Source: Octopus sinensis | Taxonomy: Eukaryota | DNA length: 44,386 nucleotides | Direction of reading: 5' to 3' | NCBI RefSeq assembly: GCF_006345805.1 | Contig: NW_021835065.1 | Location: forward strand, 1 to 44,386 | Shown here: one piece after another, positions 8,638 through 38,488 of the stretch | How the letters are laid out: the number at the start of each line of letters is the position of its first letter | Position numbering within the stretch: the stretch's first letter is position 1 | The notes under the pieces: generated by a model | What the model was told of the DNA's origin: nothing | What the model saw: only the letters and a program-made list of their open reading frames with translations | The model's database searches: none | Made by a program: the position numbers and the translations under genes

Positions 8638-8913
8638 TATATATATATTATATATATATATTATATATATATGCATATTATATATACACACACATATATA
8701 TATATACATATATACATATACATATACATATATATATAATATACATATATATACATATATATACATATAATACATATATATTCATATACATATACATATA
8801 TATACGTATATATACATACATATATATATATATATTATATATATATAATATATATATATATATTATATATATATATATATATATAGGAAAAAAGCAACAA
8901 GAATGGATTAAAA

Positions 8914-9001
8914 TCTCGGTACGATCGTTTCGTACGAGGACATCTTTAATAAGCTACAAAAAATGCAGTGAATACAGATGGCTCGTACTCGTCAGCCGAA
9001 A
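8914..9001 (-). ncRNA. Type I hammerhead ribozyme (left-arm copy)
   Basis: Reverse complement of the motif at 9601-9688, with all core nucleotides intact. Confidence 0.85.
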
Positions 9002-9600
9002 AAATATCAGAGAAATCCCAAACATCAAAAGGGGTAGATATAAAAGAGGTTGTAGGATTAACTGCATTGAAGCAAGTTCGATTCATGGAGATCCGATGAA
9101 AGGTTTTAAACCTATAGAATTTGTGCATGTCTACATATAGTTCATATTGGATATTTGATCAAGTTATATGAAGAAAATTTTCGGATACAGTCATGCAAAA
9201 TTTCTGAAAATCCGAGTGAGAGGCAAAGTGACTGCCACATCATGTAGAGGAAAGTCTGAGTAAAAACATAGTGACTGTCATGTCGTGTAGAAGAATGTTA
9301 TTGTTATTCTTCTACACGATATGACAGTCATTTTGCTTTTACTCAGACTTTCCTCTACATGATGTGGCAGTCACTTTGCCTCTCACTCGGATTTTCAGAA
9401 ATTTTGCATGACTGTATCCGAAAATTTTCTTCATATAACTTGATCAAATATCCAATATGAACTATATGTAGACATGCACAAATTCTGTAAGTTTAAAACC
9501 TTTCATCAGATCTCCATGAATCGAACTTTCTTCAATGCAGTTAATCCTACAACCTCTTTTATATCTACCCCTTTTGATGTTTGGGAATTCTCTGATATTT

Positions 9601-9688
9601 TTTCGGCTGACGAGTACGAGCCATCTGTATTCACTGCATTTTTTGTAGCTTATTAAAGATGTCCTCGTACGAAACGATCGTACCGAGA
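9601..9688 (+). ncRNA. Type I hammerhead ribozyme
   Basis: Stem I TTTCGG/CCGAGA; CTGACGA 9607-9613; stem II GTACGAG/CTCGTAC, extended by CATCT/AGATG; GAAA 9671-9674; palindromic stem III ACGATCGT; GUA cleavage after 9682. Confidence 0.88.
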
Positions 9689-9851
9689 TTTTAATCCATC
9701 TTGTTGCTTTTTTCCTATTTATAATCACCCCACTTGTCGTATGGCTACCCCATATAGATATCCGGTGCATCCTGGTTAAGGACCATATTCATGTGAATTC
9801 TTTAGAATTCACTAGAATCTCAACTTACTTAACGTAATATTATATATATTA

Positions 9852-9882
<31 letters not shown>

Positions 9883-10507
9883 ATATGTATGTATGTATGT
9901 AGTATACACGGAATGGCAACCCATCCGGCATCTCACATAGCCATATAACATTTGGGAACACGATTCGACGACAGCGTATTAATACGATAAGAAATGAAAT
10001 AAAAACCTTAGTTGCTCTCTTTATGTATAGTCATAATTTCTATGTTTGTCACATTACGAAATATTATGATAGTAATATCTGAGCTCATATACTTAATTTG
10101 GTGATCCAAGAGACCTAAACGATAATAACCAGTACTAAATATTATGGACAATACTAACCGTTATCGACTCTCAATGGTCATTCCACCTATTAAATCAATT
10201 TTACTGCCGTCACTACAAATGACTACCGTTGTCAGCATTAAGCGTTAAACTCACCAATAGTGTCTAGTATAGCTACTAATACTAAGCTAGTAATACTAAT
10301 ACTAATACTAATACGAAAGTTATAAATATTCTTTCTAAAGGAATCTAGAATAGCAGAATATATTTTGCAGTACAGATCCGTTATATATACATACATAGAC
10401 AAACACACATACACACACACATAGACACACACAAAACATATATCTGTATATATATAGAGATATATGTATATATATATATAGAGTTTGTATGTATATATAT
10501 ATATAGA

Positions 10508-11173
10508 GTTTGGCATGTATGTATAATGCCGTCTGGCATGTATGTATAATGCCCTCTATATATAAATTAATATGTTCAATAAGAAATAATTATTTTCGAA
10601 ATTTTTTCTCTTATGAGGTTTTTACGCTATCTACCTGACAATTTCTTGTTAAGTTTTCCTTATTAAGTAGTTGTCCTTATTGCTAAATTTTTATTCCGAA
10701 AAAACTTTTCCTCTCCCGAAATGCAATTCGTAAAAGTTTGCCATTCACCCGGATGTAATATATATAAACTCACCCATGTGCTTCGTTGATGTTGATCAGT
10801 TAGCTGATCGGCTTAAGCGGGGGGCAGGGTCGTTGTATTTATAATACATTCAGGCCTGCTGATGATTACGTAAGTATGAAATCACTGTGATACAGGTCTA
10901 TATTTTTAATGTCTTACTTTGAAAAAATTGCATTCGGTGGGATTAGTAATATTTTGGGTAGAAATGACTGATTGTCCCTCTTAGCGTTTGGCATGTATGT
11001 ATATGCCGTCTGGCATGTATGTATAATGCCTCATCTATATATAATTAATATGTTCAATAAGAAATAATTATTTTCGAAATTTTTTCTCTTATGAGGTTTT
11101 TACGCTATCTACCTGACAATTTCTTGTTAAGTTTTCCTTATTAAGTAGTTGTCCTTAATTGCTAAATTTTTAT
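10508..11173 (+). mobile_element. 1.4-mer tandem of a 478-bp HHR-containing unit (retrozyme/PLE-like)
   Basis: Direct repeat 10508-10694 = 10986-11173; HHR lies in the single-copy middle; flanked by (TA)n. Confidence 0.75.
10852..10899 (+). ncRNA. Type I hammerhead ribozyme
   Basis: Stem I AGGCCTG/CAGGTCT; CTGATGA 10859-10865; stem II TTAC-GTAA-GTAT (first pair U.U); GAAA 10878-10881; stem III ATCAC-T-GTGAT; AUA cleavage after 10892. Confidence 0.8.
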
Positions 11174-11564
11174 ATATATATACATATATAGTATATTACA
11201 TCATAAACATATATACATGTATAAATATTGTATATATATATACACACACATATATTATATATATATATATACATGCATATACATACATATATATATATAT
11301 ATATAATATATATATATACATATATAGTATATTACATTATATAACATACATATACATGTATAAATATATATATATGCATATATATTTATATATATACATA
11401 TTCATATATATATGTATACATATATATATATACATATACATGTATACATATATATATATACATGTATAAATATGTATATATATATATACATATACATACA
11501 TACATACATATATATATATATATGTATATATAATGTAGATATGTGTGTACGTATATGTGTGTGC

Positions 11565-11715
11565 GCATGTGATGGAATCTCCCGCCGAATCTGACGTCCA
11601 GTGCTCAGCTTTTTGCCAAACGATCTGCACAAAGGATCCGTTTATAGTGATCAAATGCTCACTCAATCAAACGGACGTTGCCTGCACAGTTGCACTTGTG
11701 TGTCACACGTCATAT
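11565..11715 (-). mobile_element. Diverged 3' part of the CORE-like SINE seen at 29891-30196
   Basis: Shared TGCA.CTGT.CAGGCAACGTC...GAGTGAGC...ATTTGA.C.CTATAAA...TTTGTGCAG and GGGAG..TCCATCA end. Confidence 0.55.
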
Positions 11716-12032
11716 GCCGACGCAGAGTTGCAGAAAATTTATGGTGAGGAGTGTATGAGCCGCAAACGAGTGTACGAGTGGTTCAGAATTTTCCAAGATG
11801 GTCGAAAAAATGTCGACATTGACAAGCGTTCTGGAGCACCCACTGCGAAAGATATCGCAGATGTGGGTTCAGCTGTGAGGGGAAACGGTCGAATCACCAT
11901 TCGTGAGTTCTACTGGAGATTTGAGTATGAGACGGTGTGTCTACCAGGCTTGCGCCAAAACTGCTTTCAGCTGACCAAAAAGACACTTGTGTTTCAGCAG
12001 CACAACATCTCCTTGATTGTGTCGAGAACAAT
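11716..12032 (+). mobile_element. Mariner transposase pseudogene fragment (HTH region)
   Basis: AELQKIYGEECMSRKRVYEWFRIFQDGRKNVDIDKRSGAP...VRGNGRITIRE matches the mariner N-terminal HTH and linker; frameshifted downstream. Confidence 0.85.
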
Positions 12033-12033
12033 A

Positions 12034-12443
12034 CTCTTTTACTCTTTTACTCTTTTACTTGTTTCAGTCATTTGACTGCGGCCATGCTGGAGCACCGCCT
12101 TCTAGTCGAGTAAATCGACCCCCAGGACTTATTCTTTGTAAGCCTAGTACTTATTCTATCAGTCTCTTTTGCTGAACCGCTAAGTTACGGGATGTAAACA
12201 CACCACCATCGGTTGTCAAGCAATGGTGGGGGGACAAACACAGACACACACATATACATACATACACATATATATACATATATACGACGGGCTTCTTCTA
12301 GTTTCCGTCTACAAAATCCACTCACAAGGCTTTGGTCGGCCCGAGGCTATAGTAGAAGACACTTGCCCAAGGTGCCACACAGTGGGAATGAACCCGGAAC
12401 CATGTGGTTGGTAAGCAAGCTACTTACCACACAGCCACTCCTG
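12034..12443 (-). mobile_element. SINE family A, near full length
   Basis: Same head, body and tail as 7913-8330. Confidence 0.92.
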
Positions 12444-15521: not shown

Positions 15522-15973
15522 AAATCTAAGTAGAGATTTCAAACTTAAAATCTTCAAAGCCACAGTCGAACCAATTCTACTATATGGCTCAGAAACCTGA
15601 AGCTTGAGAGGCGGTTGGATGGAACTTACACCCGCCTCCTTATGAGAGCTCAAAATCTCTCGTGGAAGCGTTATCCAACCAAAGTACAAATATATGGGAA
15701 ACTACCACCTGTGTCATCTCTTGTGAAAGGTAGAAGAGTCCAGTTTGCTGGACATTGTTGTAGAGCTGAAAACGAGGTAATTTCTACTCTTCTCCTCTGG
15801 AAGCCATCAGCACGCGATACCAGAGGGCGCACACTCTCCTACCCTGATGTAATCTCCAGGGATACAGGCATCCGGCAACAGGACCTCCGTAATGCTATGA
15901 TGGACCGTGAAGTCTGGCGTAACATAGTAAATTCCATTGTCTCGACCACGGTCGAAAAATGATCATGATGATG
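15522..15973 (+). mobile_element. 5'-truncated RTE-clade LINE (RT thumb/C-terminal region)
   Basis: KLKIFKATVEPILLYGSET*...LDGTYTRLL...RRVQFAGHC.R...LLLWKP...GR...MMDREVWRNIV; (GAT)n tail. Confidence 0.9.
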
Positions 15974-16632
15974 TAATATAATTTGGTTGCTATTTCTAGC
16001 CGGCCGAGCGACCACAAACAGGTTTACTTACCGTCTCGTCGCAAATGGTTTTAATACTCTCGCCGTTGTCGTGGATGTCTTGTTATTTTCACCGTTGTTG
16101 TTCGTGTTGTTATTACATATATTACTATAATATTGCTTCCAAGTCTGATTAATTAGATTCTCCTAATTAATTACAACATTGGATTCGACTTTTAACTAAT
16201 CTCACAGTTCCTGTATTCGCTTCAATTTCCTTATTAATTTAGCTGATTTGCAGTAAATATTATTTTCTCTTGTTTTCCTCCTCATCACTATTGTATGTTG
16301 TATTGTTGTTCTTTACCCTGTGTATCATTGTTTATAGTGTTATGTTTATATAATACGTGGAGCTTATATTCAAGTAACAAGCATAAAGACTAATGAAGAT
16401 TGGAATGGATTGGACACTTGTTTCGTATTAAAGGTTGCACAATAAGGTCCCTTGGCAACAGTCGTTTAATTCCGAAATTTGTTTTCTTCGTTCACGTCTT
16501 CCCTATCTCTGAACTGTATATCAGCGTGTATATCAGCGTGCTATTAAGTTAGACATGGCCTGGGCCGATACTGGCCAAAACCAAGTTCTAAGTATGTATG
16601 TATGTATGTATGTATGTATGTATGTATGTATG

Positions 16633-17100
16633 TATGTATGTATGTATGTATGCGTTGCGCATGAGAAAGTAAGGAGGGATGTCAGGAAGGGCATCGCTGT
16701 TACGCTTCCAGATGGGAAGGGTCTTCCTATGATGCTGACATGCAATGTCTGTGCAAGACCCTGCCTCAGTAAAGCTGGACTCAAGAGTCATCTTCGTAGT
16801 CATAAAGCGAGACAGATGAGTGACAACCTGGCCACTGGTGGTGGTGTAACACACCATACTAATCATATATGTCAGGCATTTGGAAAAGAGTGTAATTCGG
16901 CAGGACTTAAACGACATGCAAAGGTACATGAAGCCCAGTTACAACTACAGCCGGCTATTACCGGTAAAGGTTTTAGCTGCCAATTCTGTACAAGACATTG
17001 TAGATCTTTAGCTGGGCTAAAAAGTCACATTCGATCACAGCACCAGCAACAGTTAAGCTTCGTGCAATGGCCATACTCGATAACGAGGGGGCAGCCATCA
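16633..17100 (+). mobile_element. RTE-type LINE 3' end with three C2H2-like zinc fingers, inserted in (TATG)n
   Basis: CNVCARPCLSKAGLKSHLRSH, a degenerate CQAF..CNSAGLKRHAKVH and CQFCTRHCRSLAGLKSHIRSQH; tail CTCGATAACGAGGGGGCAGCCATCA(TGTA)n; no splice context. Confidence 0.7.
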
Positions 17101-17138
17101 TGTATGTATGTATGTATGTATGTATGTATGTATGTATG

Positions 17139-17169
<31 letters not shown>

Positions 17170-18675: not shown

Positions 18676-19005
18676 TTCGGATTGAATACGTATATGTATT
18701 TGTGAGCATATATATATACTAGGGCAAAAGAAAAAAATTCTAATGCCAAATATGCCGAAAATAGACAAATCGTCAATAACCATATAATTTATAACTATAA
18801 AGAATCTTTTTCGTTTGCCCTTGTTTATAAATTGTTTATAAAGTTAACCTTTAATGATTTTTTTAATATGCTGGCCATTAATGGAATTTTTTTCGAAAAA
18901 TTTTATTCGATGTTAGATATATATATATATCAATGTGTGTGTATTACACACAAACACACACACACACACACACACACCACACACACACACACACACACAC
19001 CACAC

Positions 19006-19036
<31 letters not shown>

Positions 19037-19037
<1 letters not shown>

Positions 19038-19768
19038 CACAAAAGGTGTTCGCCGGGAGCTACTGCACAAAGCCAGATTTCACGGGAGGGCTGCAATCAG
19101 AAAACCACTACTTTCAAACACAAACGTTGCAAAGCATTTAGAATGGAGTAAAAACCTAACGAATCGGTCCCTAGACCAATGTAAGAATGTTATTTTCTCG
19201 GACGAGTCATCCATTACCATATTTCCGACTATCCGGCCGACTATTCGTGTGGAGACATCCAAAAGAAGCATTTGACGCAGACTGTCTTCTTCCAACTGTT
19301 AAACATGGAGGAGGATCTCTGATGATGTGGGGATAGACAATATCTTGGAAATGCGCTGGCCCAATGGTTTCCCTTCATGGCAGAATTCATAGTCAAGACT
19401 ACTTAAACAATATATCTGATCAAATTCATCCTATGTTTGGGGAACATTTTACTGAATGGCCCAAGAAACCTTTTAGTGTAGTTGAACATCTTATCTAGCG
19501 ACCATAGTCCCCAGATCTCAATATTATTGAACAGTTATGGTGCATTTTAGAAAAACAAATAAGGAGTCGATATCCTCCACCAACATCAACACAAGAACTG
19601 TTTTAGCTGAAGAATGGATAAAAATTCTTTTGCAAACAATTCAAACTTTGTACGAGTCCATACCTCGTAGAATTCAAGCTGTAATTACTGCCAAAGGCGG
19701 TCCTACCGCTTATTAAAACAAATTTGTTTTAAGTTTTAAGGTGTTTCCATTATTTTGTCCAAGCCCTG
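19037..19768 (+). mobile_element. Tc1-family transposon, 5'-truncated transposase pseudogene with right TIR
   Basis: RKPLLS...LEW...VIFSDES; PTVKHGGGSLMMWG; SPDLNIIEQLW; SIPRRIQAVITAKGGPTAY*; ends ATTATTTTGTCCAAGCCCTG|TA. Confidence 0.92.
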
Positions 19769-20120: not shown

Positions 20121-20629
20121 CTGTAAGCCTGAAATTAGTCACCAATTGATAGGTCGATACATTAATCACAGGATATAACAGTAATCAGAGTTATTTTTTT
20201 ATAGGAAATTATTTGCTTACATGTTTCAAGAAGCCTGATTAACTGTATCGATATCATACAATGGTTTGTTCACACAATCGATCAAAAGATTAACCAATTA
20301 ATCAATCAAATAATGGAACAAGTCATCCGACAATTTTTTCTCCTCGGAGTTCAAAAGTCGTCCTGGTAGATTTTTCAAAGACTGCTAGAAATACGGTTAC
20401 TGAGTTGGGAGGCGGTAGCCATTGCACATATTTTATGATACATCCTTTTAAATGTCATTTTCATGCAAAGTTCATGATCGGAGAGGTCAAAATGTTATCG
20501 AATGCTGGTGCATAGAAGTTTATATGTAAAGGAACAGCACTAGAGAACTGGTATTGAATGTTTTCGTTTTCAGACAGTCCATAGTAGTGAAGTGTGAACC
20601 GTGTGAGAGATCTGTTGAATGCTCAGTAA

Positions 20630-20800
20630 CTTTTCTTTTCTACTCAAGGCACAAGTCCCGAATTTTTTTGGGGTGGGAAGTCGATTAGATCGACCTCAGT
20701 ACGCAGCTGGCACTTAATTTATCGACCCCGAAAGGATGAAAGGCAAAGTCGACCCCAGCGGAATTTGAACTCAGAACGTAAAGACAGACGAAATACCGCA
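20630..20800 (-). mobile_element. SINE family B fragment
   Basis: TTAATTTATCGACCCCGAAAGGATGAAAGGCAAAGTCGAC...GAATTTGAACTCAG. Confidence 0.85.
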
Positions 20801-21068
20801 CACATTACTAAATTCATTAAATCATTAGGTATTTCTGCTCTGAGAAGAACTACAGGGAAGGGAATTTTCCACCGCGTGGAATGTCCTCACATCAGTTTGT
20901 GAAGAAGCTTAAATCTTGAGAAAAATAAAAATGAAAACTGTAAAGAACTACGTGGACATCAAGTTTTAGTAACAAATCATAATGTGATACAAGTGTCCCT
21001 CTTTAAATGCTTGAAGTTATTCACTGCTAACCAGCTAAAAACATGTAGGATGGCTAGTAGCTACAAAT

Positions 21069-21560
21069 ACCTATTTCATTACTACCCTCAATGGGCTAAA
21101 CACAGAGGAGACAAGCAAGGACAAACAAACGGATTAAGTCGATTATATCGACTCCAGTGCATAACTGGTACTTAATTTATCAGTACCAGTAATATTATAA
21201 AGGCGGCGAGCTGACAGAATCGTTAGCACGTTGGGTGAAATGCGTAGCCGTATTTCGTCTGCCGCTACGTGCTGAGTTCAAATCCCGCCGAGATCGACTT
21301 TGCCTTTCATCCTTCGGGGTCGATAAATTAAGTACCAGTCACGCACTGGGGTCGATGTAATCGATTTAATCCGTTTGCCTGTCCTTGTTTGTCCCCTCTA
21401 TGTTTAGCCCCTCGTGGGTAGTAAAGAAATAGGTACTTAATTTATCAACCCCGAAAGGATGAAAGGCAAACTCGACCTCGGCAGAATTTGAACTCAGAAC
21501 GTAACGGCAGACGAAATACCGCTAAGCATTTTGCTCTAACGTTTCTGCCAGCTCGCCGCC
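21069..21560 (-). mobile_element. SINE family B host copy interrupted by an opposite-orientation family B copy (21202-21433, +)
   Basis: 16-bp duplication GGTACTTAATTTATCA at 21167-21182 and 21432-21447 flanks the inner copy. Confidence 0.88.
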
Positions 21561-21899
21561 TTTTAGTAGCTGCAAATACCGCAAGCGTCAAGAGTGTTCT
21601 TTTACCAATATGCACTATCATACATGCTTAAATGCTCGTGCATTTGCGTAGACATAAATACACGCAATTCAGTGGCAAATTGATTCTCTTTAGTTCATTC
21701 GCTCTCTCCCGTTTATTTCCATTCCAAAGCGTGTCCAAAAGACACCCACTTCACTAAACAAGCTGGGTGGGCTTTGTCAGTTTAGTTATCGTATTGTCGA
21801 ACGCGCATAGGTTTTCACGGTTGACTTAACCACATCTAACAGTTCTTTGGCTATCATATCTCTGACTTGGCCTGAAAAAAGCTAGAGATATACCACCAT

Positions 21900-22050
21900 T
21901 TTCTCCCCTCCATACACACGCAAGCATGTATCCGACACATACACTGTTCACTTTCCAGACATTTGTACATTACTGCATATACTTTATACGCACTTTTTGA
22001 CAAGTTGTGGTGCACCTGAGCACTGTATACAATAATTTCATTATTATTAT
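21900..22050 (+). mobile_element. Possible LINE 3'UTR remnant
   Basis: Ends ...GTGGTGCACCTGAGCACTGTATACAATAATTTC(ATT)n, a tail-like ending; no coding motif recognised. Confidence 0.3.
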
Positions 22051-22329
22051 AGGTAGACTAATGCTAAATCACAGCGAACAACAGATAAGCTTCTGATAAA
22101 TATACATCCCACACAGTATTATGACACATAAACCACAAATAAATACCGGTAAATCGCAAGCTAACAACGTGTGTGCTAGCGATTATCGACAAATGTATCT
22201 GTGAATTAAATTACAGTAAAACACATATTTATCATTTACATAACATAGATTATTCGCAGTGGCGCGCGCACACAATAGACACACAACAAACGCACACAAC
22301 GAACGTACACATACACAACAAACACACAC

Positions 22330-23555
22330 ACGTAAAGACAGACGAAATACCTATTTCTTTACTGCACACAAGGGGTTACACACAGAGGGGACAAACAAGG
22401 ACAGACAAACGGATTAAGTCGATTATATCGACCCCAGTGCGTAACTGGTACTTATTTAATCGACCCCGAAAGGATGAAAGGCAAAGTCTACCTTGGCGGA
22501 ATTTGAACTCAGAATATAACAGCAGATGAAATACCGCAAAGCATGTCGCCCGGCGTGCTAATGTTTCTTATTTCTTTATTGCCCACGAGGGTCTAAACAT
22601 AGAGGGGACCAACAAGGACAGACAAACGGATTAAGTCGACCTCAGTGCGTAACTGGTACTTAATTTATCGACCCCGAAAGGATGAAAGGCAAAGTCTACC
22701 TTGGCGGAATTTGAACTCAGAATATAACAGCAGATGAAATACCGCAAAGCATGTCGCCCGGCGTGCTAATGTTTCTTATTTCTTTATTGCCCACGAGGGT
22801 CTAAACATAGAGGGGACCAACAAGGACAGACAAACGGATTAAGTCGACCTCAGTGCGTAACTGGTACTTAATTTATCGACCCCGAAAGGATGAAAGGCAA
22901 AGTCGACCTCGGCGGAATTTGAACTCAGAACATAACGGTAGACGAGATACCTATTTCTTTACTACCCACGAGAGTCTAAACACAGAGGAGACAAGCAAGG
23001 ACAGACAAACGGATTAAGTCGATTATATCGACCCCAGTGCGTAACTGGTACTTATTTAATCGAGCCTCAAAAGGATGAAAGGCAAAGGCGACCTCGGCGG
23101 AATTTGAACTCAGAACATAACGGCAGACGAAATACCTATTTCTTTACTAGCCACGAGGGGCTAAACACAGAGGAGACAAGCAAGGGCAGACAAACGGATT
23201 AAGTCGATTATATCGACCACAGTGCGTAACTGGTACTTATTTAATCGAGCCCCGAAAGGATGAAAGGCAAAGTCGACCTCGGCGGAATTTGAACTCAGAA
23301 CATAACGGCAGACGAAATACCTATTTCTTTACTAGCCACGAGGGGTTAAACACAGAGGAGACAAGCAAGGGCAGACAAACGGATTAAGTCGATTATATCG
23401 ACCACAGTGCGTAACTGGTACTTATTTAATCGAGCCCCGAAAGGATGAAAGGCAAAGTCGACCTCGGCGGAATTTGAACTCAGAACGTAGCAGCAGACGA
23501 AATATTGCTAAGCATTTCGCGCGGCGTGCTAACGTTTTTGCCAGTTCGCCACCTT
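22330..23555 (-). mobile_element. Head-to-tail array of six SINE family B units (about 185-209 bp)
   Basis: GAATTTGAACTCAG recurs near 22499, 22707, 22915, 23100, 23285 and 23470; a complete head is present only at the right end. Confidence 0.92.
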
Positions 23556-25588: not shown

Positions 25589-26000
25589 GGCGGCGAGCTG
25601 GCAGAAACGTTAGCGCGCCGGGCGAAATGCTTAGCGGTATTTCGTCTGCCGTTACGTTCTGAGTTCAAATTACGCCGAGGTCGACTTTGCCTTTCATCCT
25701 TTCAAGGTCGATTAAATAAGTACCAGTTACGCACTGCTGTCGATGTAATCGACTGAATCCGTTTGTCTGTCCTTGTTTGTCCTCTCTGTGTTTAGCCTCT
25801 TGTGGGTAGTAAAGAAATAGGTATTTCGTCTGTCGGTACGTTCTGAGTTCAAATTCTGCCGAGGTCGACTTTGCCTTTCAAGGTCGATTAAATAAGTACC
25901 AGTTACGCACTGGGGTCGATATAGTCGACTTAACCCTTTTGTCTGTTCTTGTTTTCCCCTTCTATGCTTAGCTCCTTATTGGCAATAAAAAAATAAGAAA
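25589..26000 (+). mobile_element. SINE family B dimer
   Basis: Full head GGCGGCGAGCTGGCAGAAACGTTAGC, then a second unit restarting at GTATTTCGTCTG. Confidence 0.9.
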
Positions 26001-29363: not shown

Positions 29364-29890
29364 AGTTTTTCTAATCTAGATGCAACGCCTGAAATTTTAG
29401 GGAAACAAAGCTAGTCTATATCTTCGACTCCACTACTTGACTGATATTCATTTTGTTAACCATGAAAAGGTGACACGTAAAAACAACCCCGGTGGTGTTT
29501 GAACTCAACTTGTATAGAACCGAAAGAAATTACGTTTAAACGTTTTGCCCAGCGCAGCCGTAATTCTGCTAGCCCGCCTCCTAAAATAATAGCCATTTTT
29601 AATATAGGTTTATGGCCATCAGTTGGTGGAGTGAGATGAGAATAGTCGATTAATTTCGGCACCTGTACTTCACTGCTACTGTATTTTACAGATCTCAAGA
29701 AGATAGAAGGCAGTGTTAAATTGGCTGGATTTGAACTCTGAACGTAAAGACCCGGAATAAAGACTACAAGGTATTTTACCCATTGCTCCAAATTTTGTTT
29801 CTTTTTTAACTTTGTACTTATAGATGTACACACATATGTCTGTATATCTATAAACACACACACATATTTGTATATATATATATATATATA

Positions 29891-35032: not shown

Positions 35033-35640
35033 GTTTCCTTATTTCTTTATTGCCCACAAGGGGCTAAACATAAAGGGGACAAACAAGGACAGGCAAAGGG
35101 ATTAAGTCGATTACAACGACCCCAGTGCGTAACTGGTACTTAATTTATCGACCCGGAAAGGATGAAAGGTAAAGTCGACCACGGCGGAATTTGAACTCAG
35201 AACGTAAAGACAGACGAAATACGCATTTCTTTACTACCCACAAGGGGCTAAACACAGAGAGGACAAACAAGGACAGACAAACGGATTAAGTCGATTACAT
35301 CGACCCCAGTGCGTAACTGGTACTTATTTAATCGGCCCCGCAAGGATGAAAGGCAAAGTCGACCTCGGCGGGATTTGAACTCAGAACGTAGCGGCATACG
35401 AAATACCTATTTCTTTACTACCCACAAGGGGCTAAACACAGAAAGGACAAACAAGGACAGACATAGGTATTAAGTCAATTACATCGACTCCAGTGCGTAA
35501 CTGGTACTTAATTTATCGACCCCGAAAGGATGAAAGGCAAAGTCGACCTCGGCGGAATTTGAACTCAGAACGTAACGGCAGACGAAATACCGTAAAGCAT
35601 TTCGCTCGGCGTGCTCACGTTTCTGCCAGGTCACCGCCTT
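35033..35640 (-). mobile_element. SINE family B trimer
   Basis: Three units of about 185 bp, with the head at the right end. Confidence 0.92.
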
Positions 35641-37972: not shown

Positions 37973-38014
37973 TATATATATATATACTTTATTTAAAGCA
38001 GCAGAAAATTCAAC

Positions 38015-38061
38015 AAAACCTGTTACTCTGAGTTTCCCGTTGCCGTTCATCGGACAGTTTT
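38015..38061 (-). ncRNA. Minimal hammerhead motif, left-arm copy (core CCGATGA)
   Basis: AAAACTGT CCGATGA ACG-GCAA-CGG GAAA CTC-A-GAG TA ACAGGTTTT. Confidence 0.55.
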
Positions 38062-38069
38062 TGCTAGAA

Positions 38070-38115
38070 AAAACCGTCTGATGAACGGCAACGGGAAACT
38101 CAGAGTAACAGTTTT
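38070..38115 (+). ncRNA. Minimal type I hammerhead motif
   Basis: AAAACCGT CTGATGA ACG-GCAA-CGG GAAA CTC-A-GAG TA ACAGTTTT; GUA site after 38107; first stem II pair is A.G. Confidence 0.72.
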
Positions 38116-38488
38116 GTTGAATTTTCTGCTGCTTTAAATAAAGCATATTACTCTACCACTGGTATTTGAGTACTCTTTTTTCCACCTTGTTTCATATTTA
38201 TGTGTTTATTCCGGTATATATATATATATATGTATATGTATTTGTGTATGTATATACATATATGTATGTGTGTGTGTAAGAATATTCCTATATATATGAA
38301 TGTGTGTAGTAATGGAAATAGATTTACAAACAAAAGGTGCGCTGAGCTGTGTGGGTGAGGCTAGAAAATGAGATGGGGGTAAGAACGCTTTAAACCAGAA
38401 CCCAATGAGCAGAGAAAAAACAAGAAGCACCACCCCATTCGTACCTCCATTTGTGTGTCTTTTCACACACACACACACACACTCTGCT

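Follow-up and report, generated by a model that had tools for sequence, protein, structure and literature searches.

A candidate non-autonomous PLE-type element with a type I hammerhead motif, bounded by TA tracts in Octopus sinensis

Results

Organization of the locus

The window analysed here, a 44,386-nt stretch of the Octopus sinensis genome (contig NW_021835065.1), contains at 10508-11173 a non-coding element of A-B-A anatomy, with TA tracts at both ends and an intact type I hammerhead motif on the plus strand. Two direct repeats, A1 (10508-10694, 187 bp) and A2 (10986-11173, 188 bp), flank a single-copy core, B (10695-10985, 291 bp), all three being read on the plus strand. The repeats differ by no substitution and by five single-base gap columns out of 190 in a pairwise alignment, and BLAST of the window against itself extends the match to 10504/10982 (96.4% over 194, E 2e-85). 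The unit, which consists of B followed by A, measures 478-479 bp (measured between the left edges of the repeats the period is 478, between their right edges 479), has a GC content of 34% and is present as 1.4 head-to-tail units, with no further copy in the 44,386-nt window at E<0.05 outside the microsatellite flanks (BLAST). Its longest stop-free frame has 54 aa and its longest Met-started frame 26 aa, circular reading included. The hallmarks of LTRs were looked for at the repeats: the ends read GTTT...TTAT and not TG...CA, neither a PBS nor an abutting PPT is found on either strand, and there is no target duplication of 4-5 bp at the element ends apart from TA repeats. The initial annotation had described a 1.4-mer of a 478-bp unit, with terminal direct repeats of about 187 bp, no TG...CA ends and no ORF, and this is borne out by the alignment, the period and the frame and end checks. 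The output of the repeat finder was swamped by microsatellites, the A1/A2 repeat being absent from its 20 largest families.

The (TA)n found at both ends of the element forms tracts at 10447-10505 and from 11171 onwards, in a window of which 7.5% lies within 10 nt of a (TA)5+ tract. On the 3' side, the TA-rich microsatellite at 11171-11532 is the presumed target. A2, in which the complete unit would have its 3' end, has its final three bases (TAT) in common with this (TA)n, and A1 may be read as a 5'-truncated copy of the upstream unit, that is, a pseudo-LTR. On the 5' side, the (TA)n tract and the first ~18 bases of the element have been amplified together as a 25-bp tandem of 3.2 copies (10447-10525) and, because the junction itself has been amplified, the left boundary is fuzzy (10504-10508). 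Bases 10497-10507 of the flank match 10554-10564 in reverse complement, and they lengthen the hairpin of A1 only; fold-back or slippage has possibly taken place at this 5' join, where the sequence is of low complexity. The 3' flank shows, by eye, an imperfect local duplication of ~50 bases between 11172 and 11360, with a period near 138, so that the microsatellite is evidently subject to local duplication.

Each repeat opens with an internal tandem of 22-23 bp. In A1, it appears as a 23-bp tandem pair of quasi-palindromes (10511-10557, plus strand) that would form a single long hairpin and that, being found in A1 and A2 alike, predates the duplication. A TATA-like word, seen in the sequence alone, lies inside A1 at 10557-10564 (plus strand), and a 15-bp hairpin with mismatches (10637-10675, plus strand), also present in A2, ends 19 nt short of the repeat end. 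As no substitution is found in 187 bases, the true divergence is below ~1.6% (rule of three) and the duplication is therefore young; the five differences, all of them indels, may reflect slippage or read error. A nearby palindrome (8886-9718), unlike the A1/A2 pair, differs mostly by substitutions, with nine of them between its arms plus one internal gap. This near-perfect palindrome of 830 bp, with 394-nt arms that are 98% complementary and a 9-nt spacer, begins in a TA tract, has neither a hammerhead core nor a Pfam match, and is probably a fold-back or MITE-like element.

Among the 144 frames of the window of at least 55 aa that pass the complexity filter, no RT or GIY-YIG domain was detected with Pfam, and the only other matches are mariner, Tc1 and zinc-finger fragments, together with weak unrelated ones. 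An autonomous Hydra-clade PLE, in which a single ORF combines RT with a C-terminal GIY-YIG, was thus rejected as the class of the element. The transposase fragments are of the Mos1-type HTH_48 (11539-12072, plus strand, E 8e-4) and Tc3-type HTH (18706-19272, plus strand, E 2e-4), both below the Pfam cut-off, and a plus-strand frame at 16513-17166 has C2H2 zinc-finger matches. A 137-aa frame at 15549-15959 (plus strand) has 145 relatives, with up to 87% identity and an informative name in none of the 120 listed; it looks like the C-terminus of an RTE-type LINE. A family of 184-185-bp repeats (20614-23504, 25589-25880, 35040-35638 and 21180-21560), with a SINE-sized unit and no hammerhead core, is organized in short tandem arrays (spacings of 184, 185 and 208) and inverted pairs. 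In the case of the A-B-A element, an origin as a tRNA- or 5S-derived SINE was considered and discarded: ARAGORN reports 0 tRNA genes in the window, there is no Rfam match of this class, and a lone relaxed A-box-like word at 10809 has no B box behind it.

The hammerhead motif and its predicted folding

The motif located by descriptor search at 10852-10899 (plus strand), in B between the repeats, has the CUGANGA and GAAA boxes, the NUH triplet, the three helices and the open stem I of a type I hammerhead. Stem I pairs 10852-10858 with 10893-10899 (7 bp including one G.U), the CUGAUGA core occupies 10859-10865 and GAAA 10878-10881, stem II (10866-10877) is made of a U.U, 3 bp and a GUAA loop, and stem III is the 11-nt palindrome AUCAC-U-GUGAU (10881-10891); cleavage is predicted after A10892, at an AUA site. 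The type I descriptor, written after the motif was seen and missing the degenerate second hammerhead at 38078, matches 0 of 20,000 core shuffles, 0 of 20,000 whole-element shuffles and none in 200 whole-window shuffles. The compact hammerhead originally proposed from the letters, with a 7-bp stem I, CTGATGA, a GNRA-capped stem II, ATCAC-T-GTGAT and an AUA site, is accordingly upheld. An Rfam search of the element gave five matches at E<=10, with no hammerhead among them, and that of the window gave none in the best 150 of 165 matches. Since the 38078 hammerhead is likewise absent there, these results tell against the Rfam label more than against the motif being a ribozyme. The window search also gave numerous miRNA matches, all below gathering scores, which were set aside as microsatellite noise.

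Folding predictions give the isolated 48-nt motif a probability of 0.003 for the single-hammerhead fold, and when two 48-nt copies are co-folded the MFE structure is a double hammerhead (-28.3 versus 2 x -10.3 kcal/mol for the best monomer fold). Such dimer behaviour has been described for the palindromic-stem-III hammerheads of metazoans and PLEs (PMC4209133, PMC6765202). In a modelled head-to-tail dimer transcript, with an MFE of -180.9, the double hammerhead has no advantage over two single ones (-172.5 versus -173.4), both forms lying ~8 kcal/mol above the minimum; as the advantage vanishes in this model, activity is not confidently predicted. Position 1.7 is a U and loop II a GNRA loop, a combination for which a rate-enhancing contact has been proposed (PMC11875169). 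In this motif U1.7 pairs with A2.7, and in one engineered ribozyme such pairing halved turnover with respect to the unpaired form (PMC11875169).

The core B is predicted to fold as a branched rod (MFE -85.1 kcal/mol, z -4.06), a z of -4 being reached by 25 of 148 raw window tiles and by 6 of 188 low-repeat tile-strands, four of which are palindromes. The circular unit has a z of -7.4 on the plus (ribozyme) strand versus -3.3 on the minus strand, partly due to the 23-bp tandem; without the tandem, A folds weakly (z -1.9, 5/200 shuffles; -1.2 on the other strand). Mutual pairing of A and B is not above that obtained with shuffled A, which does as well in energy in 24 of 150 cases and in pair count in 34 of 150.

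A second hammerhead element and a shared 9-mer

A second element with hammerheads occupies 37988-38214 of the window; its 5' copy is inverted, and TA tracts flank it on either side. Its arms (~37988-38062 and 38065-38143) carry hammerheads at 38053 (minus strand) and 38078 (plus strand), and it ends 107 nt past the cleavage site, an anatomy that is the standard PLE insertion form. Judging from the letters, both hammerheads look damaged, with a C.A mismatch in stem I of the plus copy and a CCGAUGA core in the minus copy. By eye, stems I and III of Hydra-2_aMil are nearly equal to those of this element, and a hairpin at the 3' end of Hydra-2_Amil resembles its bulged hairpin at ~38148-38171. The two hammerhead elements show no significant overall similarity, which confirms that the A-B-A element contains, as first noted, a different hammerhead family; their tails do not align significantly overall either (707 of 2,000 shuffles are as good).

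The 9-mer TTTATTCCG lies across the A1/core junction (10690-10698, plus strand), at the point of the unit where the 3' end of the element (11173) stops, and is found in identical form at the end of the second hammerhead element (38205-38213). This sharing, noticed post hoc, is equalled in 78 of 20,000 shuffles and in 36 of 17,748 window 20-mers, and a third copy of the 9-mer, at 29761 on the minus strand, is located in an unrelated repeat. We consider TTTATTCCG a candidate initiation signal, as a lead only.

The search for paralogues covered the GTDB, plasmid and phage collections and, as its only eukaryotic sequence, the window. The exact ribozyme pattern is found 0 times in GTDB, the plasmid search gave no match, and a single AT-rich phage match with 8% coverage (E 5e-3) was taken as chance.

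Discussion

The U.U at the base of stem II had been suspected in the initial annotation of having inactivated this copy, ATAC/GTAT being the consensus proposed for stem II, and the comparison with related ribozymes does not support this. A U after CUGANGA together with a U before GAAA is found in 14 of 25 Hydra-clade PLE families (File S2, PMC8557442; its 26 Hydra rows represent 25 families, as Penelope-13_HM is listed twice and was counted once). The axolotl HHR_Amex2, present in ~60,000 copies, also has U.U at this place and does cleave, with 22% of the monomer cut in 1 h and better cleavage of the dimer (PMC7229834). These two observations make the U.U more likely a family trait than damage, and its reading as damage is probably wrong.

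Several features are common to Hydra-clade PLEs and the octopus element: the type I hammerhead lies on the sense strand, ahead of the 3' end, its stem III is short and palindromic, and the target is (TA)n, in our case at one locus only. In this clade, the hammerheads are reported to sit in the 3' UTR near the end, stem III is palindromic in 25 of 25 families (9 nt in 19 and 10 nt in six), and 'almost all' families insert into (TA)n, a preference that File S1 of the same source gives for 23 of 27 Hydra families or, by rows, for all save Penelope-2_NV and two-letter blanks (PMC8557442). Penelope-14_HM has an identical GUAA loop and Penelope-9_HM also has a 3-bp stem II (PMC8557442), and stem III is alike by eye in Hydra-1_cRog and Penelope-17_HM, the octopus motif having one extra U-A pair beside the core. 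There are differences as well. A GUH triplet is found in 25 of 25 Hydra motifs (PMC8557442), and the 11-nt stem III and the AUA of the octopus motif match 0 of 25, so that the motif resembles the Hydra type, Hydra membership not being established by it. The cleavage site lies 281 nt from the 3' end of the element and 93 nt from the end of B, compared with 29-152 nt to the 3' end in 23 of 24 Hydra consensus sequences and 354 in one (from PMC8557442; the count leaves out Penelope-18_HMa, whose tabulated motif is at the 5' end). Hydra-1_Obim is a Hydra-clade family known from octopus (PMC8557442), with a hammerhead unlike that of the octopus element. Its consensus UTR and those of five other novel Hydra families show, by eye and not by computation, no similarity to the element. 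For O. vulgaris, PLEs are put at 6.83%, with 336 recently active insertions (PMC13282606); no ribozyme mention was found in the available part of that repeat annotation.

The feature is real, and probably represents an undescribed family of a known kind of element. The explanation that we favour, with a probability of about 0.55, is that a non-autonomous PLE-type unit (B followed by A) entered a (TA)n tract through target-primed reverse transcription. Its mobilisation in trans would have depended on an autonomous PLE that targets (TA)n and belongs, most plausibly, to the Hydra clade. The PLE endonuclease would nick the (TA)n tract, and one whole unit would then be copied, the uncut ribozyme site crossed and 187 nt more added, with a stop just past the 23-bp hairpin. 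The locus shows several traits of non-autonomous PLEs, namely a 5'-truncated partial tandem that is non-coding and inserted in a microsatellite with no discernible short target duplication. Such 5'-truncated partial tandems are the standard insertion form of PLEs (PMC8557442), the anatomy by itself fitting a long target duplication equally. In favour of a PLE-type unit we counted the double-hammerhead co-fold, the U.U, the palindromic stem III, the TA-bounded ends and the TA-flanked second hammerhead element ending in TTTATTCCG; counted against it were the 281-nt distance, the lack of A-B co-folding, the 11-nt stem III and the AUA, together with the outcome of the paralogue searches, the weak folding of A without its tandem, the frequency of tiles with a z like that of B, the modelled dimer transcript, the non-aligning tails of the two hammerhead elements and the lack of RT and GIY-YIG matches in the window.

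A cleaved linear monomer would need a jump to serve as a template of more than one unit, and the template would therefore be either a tandem transcript made by read-through and left uncleaved, or a circle of 478 nt closed by ligation. We give the two roughly even odds, the sequence fitting both; since the uncleaved tandem transcript would give an equal product, and a purified PLE enzyme uses unprocessed RNA, the circle is not required. The more-than-unit copy had been attributed at first either to reverse transcription running past the start of a circular template or to a PLE partial tandem. Of these, the partial tandem gains from the TA ends, the Hydra-type ribozyme and the standard insertion form, and the circular template is neither needed nor excluded. 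The ribozyme would be a weak, dimer-prone motif that cuts tandem transcripts into units. As this copy has a single ribozyme, no unit or circle can be excised from it, and A1, as a pseudo-LTR, could allow its renewed transcription.

A different partition of the locus, which the initial annotation had not considered and which we find unlikely, takes B alone as the mobile piece (291 bp, the end of a 5'-truncated PLE or retrozyme) and A as native DNA, doubled into an unusually long target-site duplication when two TA tracts separated by 187 bp received staggered nicks, or in the course of local repair. The 93 nt between the cleavage site and the end of B would then fall within the 29-152 nt of Hydra elements. 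B folds as a closed domain from 10695 and does not pair significantly with A, the A copies differ by 0 substitutions, and TA tracts are often separated by 137-242 bp in the window (14 of 49 gaps). On this partition, however, neither end of B would touch (TA)n, and the sequence at the A/B junction, which should then be arbitrary, reads as the TTTATTCCG that ends the second element (78 of 20,000 shuffles, post hoc). The target duplications known for PLEs are also far shorter than 187 bp. Equal anatomy would be left by a one-off deletion, in which either a partial tandem of a full-length PLE (composed of pseudo-LTR, 5' UTR, ORF and hammerhead-bearing 3' UTR) or a more extended array of retrozymes lost its ORF or extra units to leave A-B-A, the 478-nt unit having never been mobile itself. 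The position of Hydra-clade hammerheads, in the 3' UTR near the end, and the single copy in the window agree with such an event, which we nevertheless regard as quite doubtful: an ORF remnant is absent from B, B forms one rod across the would-be deletion join (with modest significance), and a second event would have had little time to occur, the repeats being almost identical.

The short direct terminal repeats flanking a non-coding middle, with a total below 1 kb, also recall a miniature LTR retrotransposon (TRIM), a class reported from bivalves (PMC10886601), or an analogue of the plant LTR retrozymes with true 187-bp LTRs. This is very improbable, given that TG...CA, a PBS, an abutting PPT (on both strands) and a 4-5-bp target duplication beyond the TA repeats are all missing. 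LTR retrozymes, moreover, are described with a type III hammerhead in both LTRs (PMC7761336; Li et al. 2026, 10.64898/2026.07.22.740005), whereas the ribozyme found here is of type I and lies outside the repeats. Least probable of all is that the motif arose by chance, or that the assembly is at fault between the microsatellites. All five repeat differences are single-base gaps, a pattern that sequencing error can give, and the motif is unscored by Rfam, but it occurs in 0 of 20,000 shuffles and has the architecture of published PLE hammerheads, and a false duplication explains neither the ribozyme nor the TA-bounded ends.

A more ambitious proposal, which we advance only tentatively and consider improbable as a whole, is that the locus belongs, as one of its dispersed copies, to an undescribed family of retrozymes with a 478-nt circular RNA, the mover being a Hydra-clade PLE and the initiation signal the shared 9-mer. 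If true, an autonomous partner and a cis signal would be named for a metazoan retrozyme, both of which are left open in the available parts of the retrozyme papers, and an AUA-cleaving variant would be added to the U.U-type hammerheads. The locus adds a compact and probably young test case, in which both ends can be read, the ribozyme points by its signature to a single clade of PLEs, and a candidate initiation word is shared with the second element. Should copies across the genome prove to end invariably at the 9-mer on the 3' side and to differ in their 5' ends, with these lying beyond the ribozyme, it would become directly testable which RT moves metazoan retrozymes, and whether circles or uncleaved multimers are the template; otherwise, the locus would simply add to the PLE remnants of a genome rich in repeats.

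In terms of known systems, the element works like a non-autonomous PLE or a retrozyme derivative. With the metazoan non-LTR retrozymes it has in common a non-coding sequence, a GC content below 50%, the lack of LTR, PBS and PPT, and a type I hammerhead. Retrozymes also have a self-paired unit, mobilisation by PLEs and a more-than-unit cDNA have been proposed for them, and dispersed monomers are common in their families (PMC7229834; 10.64898/2026.07.22.740005). The unit of 478 nt is longer than the 170-400 nt quoted for invertebrate circles, but inside the 51-972 bp of Li et al. 2026. The hammerheads of PLE repeats and the model leading from a circle to a more-than-unit copy date from 2014 (PMC4209133). 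Non-LTR retrozymes, with PLEs as candidate movers and the more-than-unit model, followed in 2020 (PMC7229834; review PMC7761336), and a 2026 preprint argues that the retrozymes of animals, with their many solo copies, are PLE-derived and non-autonomous (10.64898/2026.07.22.740005). Circles have been demonstrated for coral, mussel and axolotl retrozymes (PMC7229834). An active retrozyme is recognized by two consecutive ribozyme-bearing units (Li et al. 2026, 10.64898/2026.07.22.740005); here, where at least two consecutive hammerhead-bearing units would be required, we find 1.4 units and one hammerhead, and the class of active non-LTR retrozymes was rejected. A description of the element family, or of a cephalopod retrozyme, was not found in the literature searched, which was partial and had the repeat databases outside it, so that an earlier description is possible.

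Non-autonomous PLEs with pseudo-LTRs were described in 2021, among them MRC1 of Chlamydomonas (PMC8557442). Like the octopus element, MRC1 has a short non-coding unit in a partial tandem that mimics an LTR element, and it was first misfiled as LTR for this reason. In contrast, the Chlamys partners of MRC1 are mostly without hammerheads and prefer (CA)n or (C)n, and in the octopus element the similarity to a partner-like 3' end consists of the 9-mer only. For PAc, a Poseidon PLE of Anolis, in vitro work with the purified enzyme showed internal initiation, mainly on template RNA that had not been processed (Frangieh et al. 2024, PMC11167929). PAc differs from the octopus element in being autonomous, in belonging to another clade and in initiating ~85-92 nt past the cut, in an AC-rich stem-loop; it is a model for internal initiation downstream of a hammerhead, for the cleavage of an AT-rich target and for a protein-assisted ribozyme (PMC11167929).
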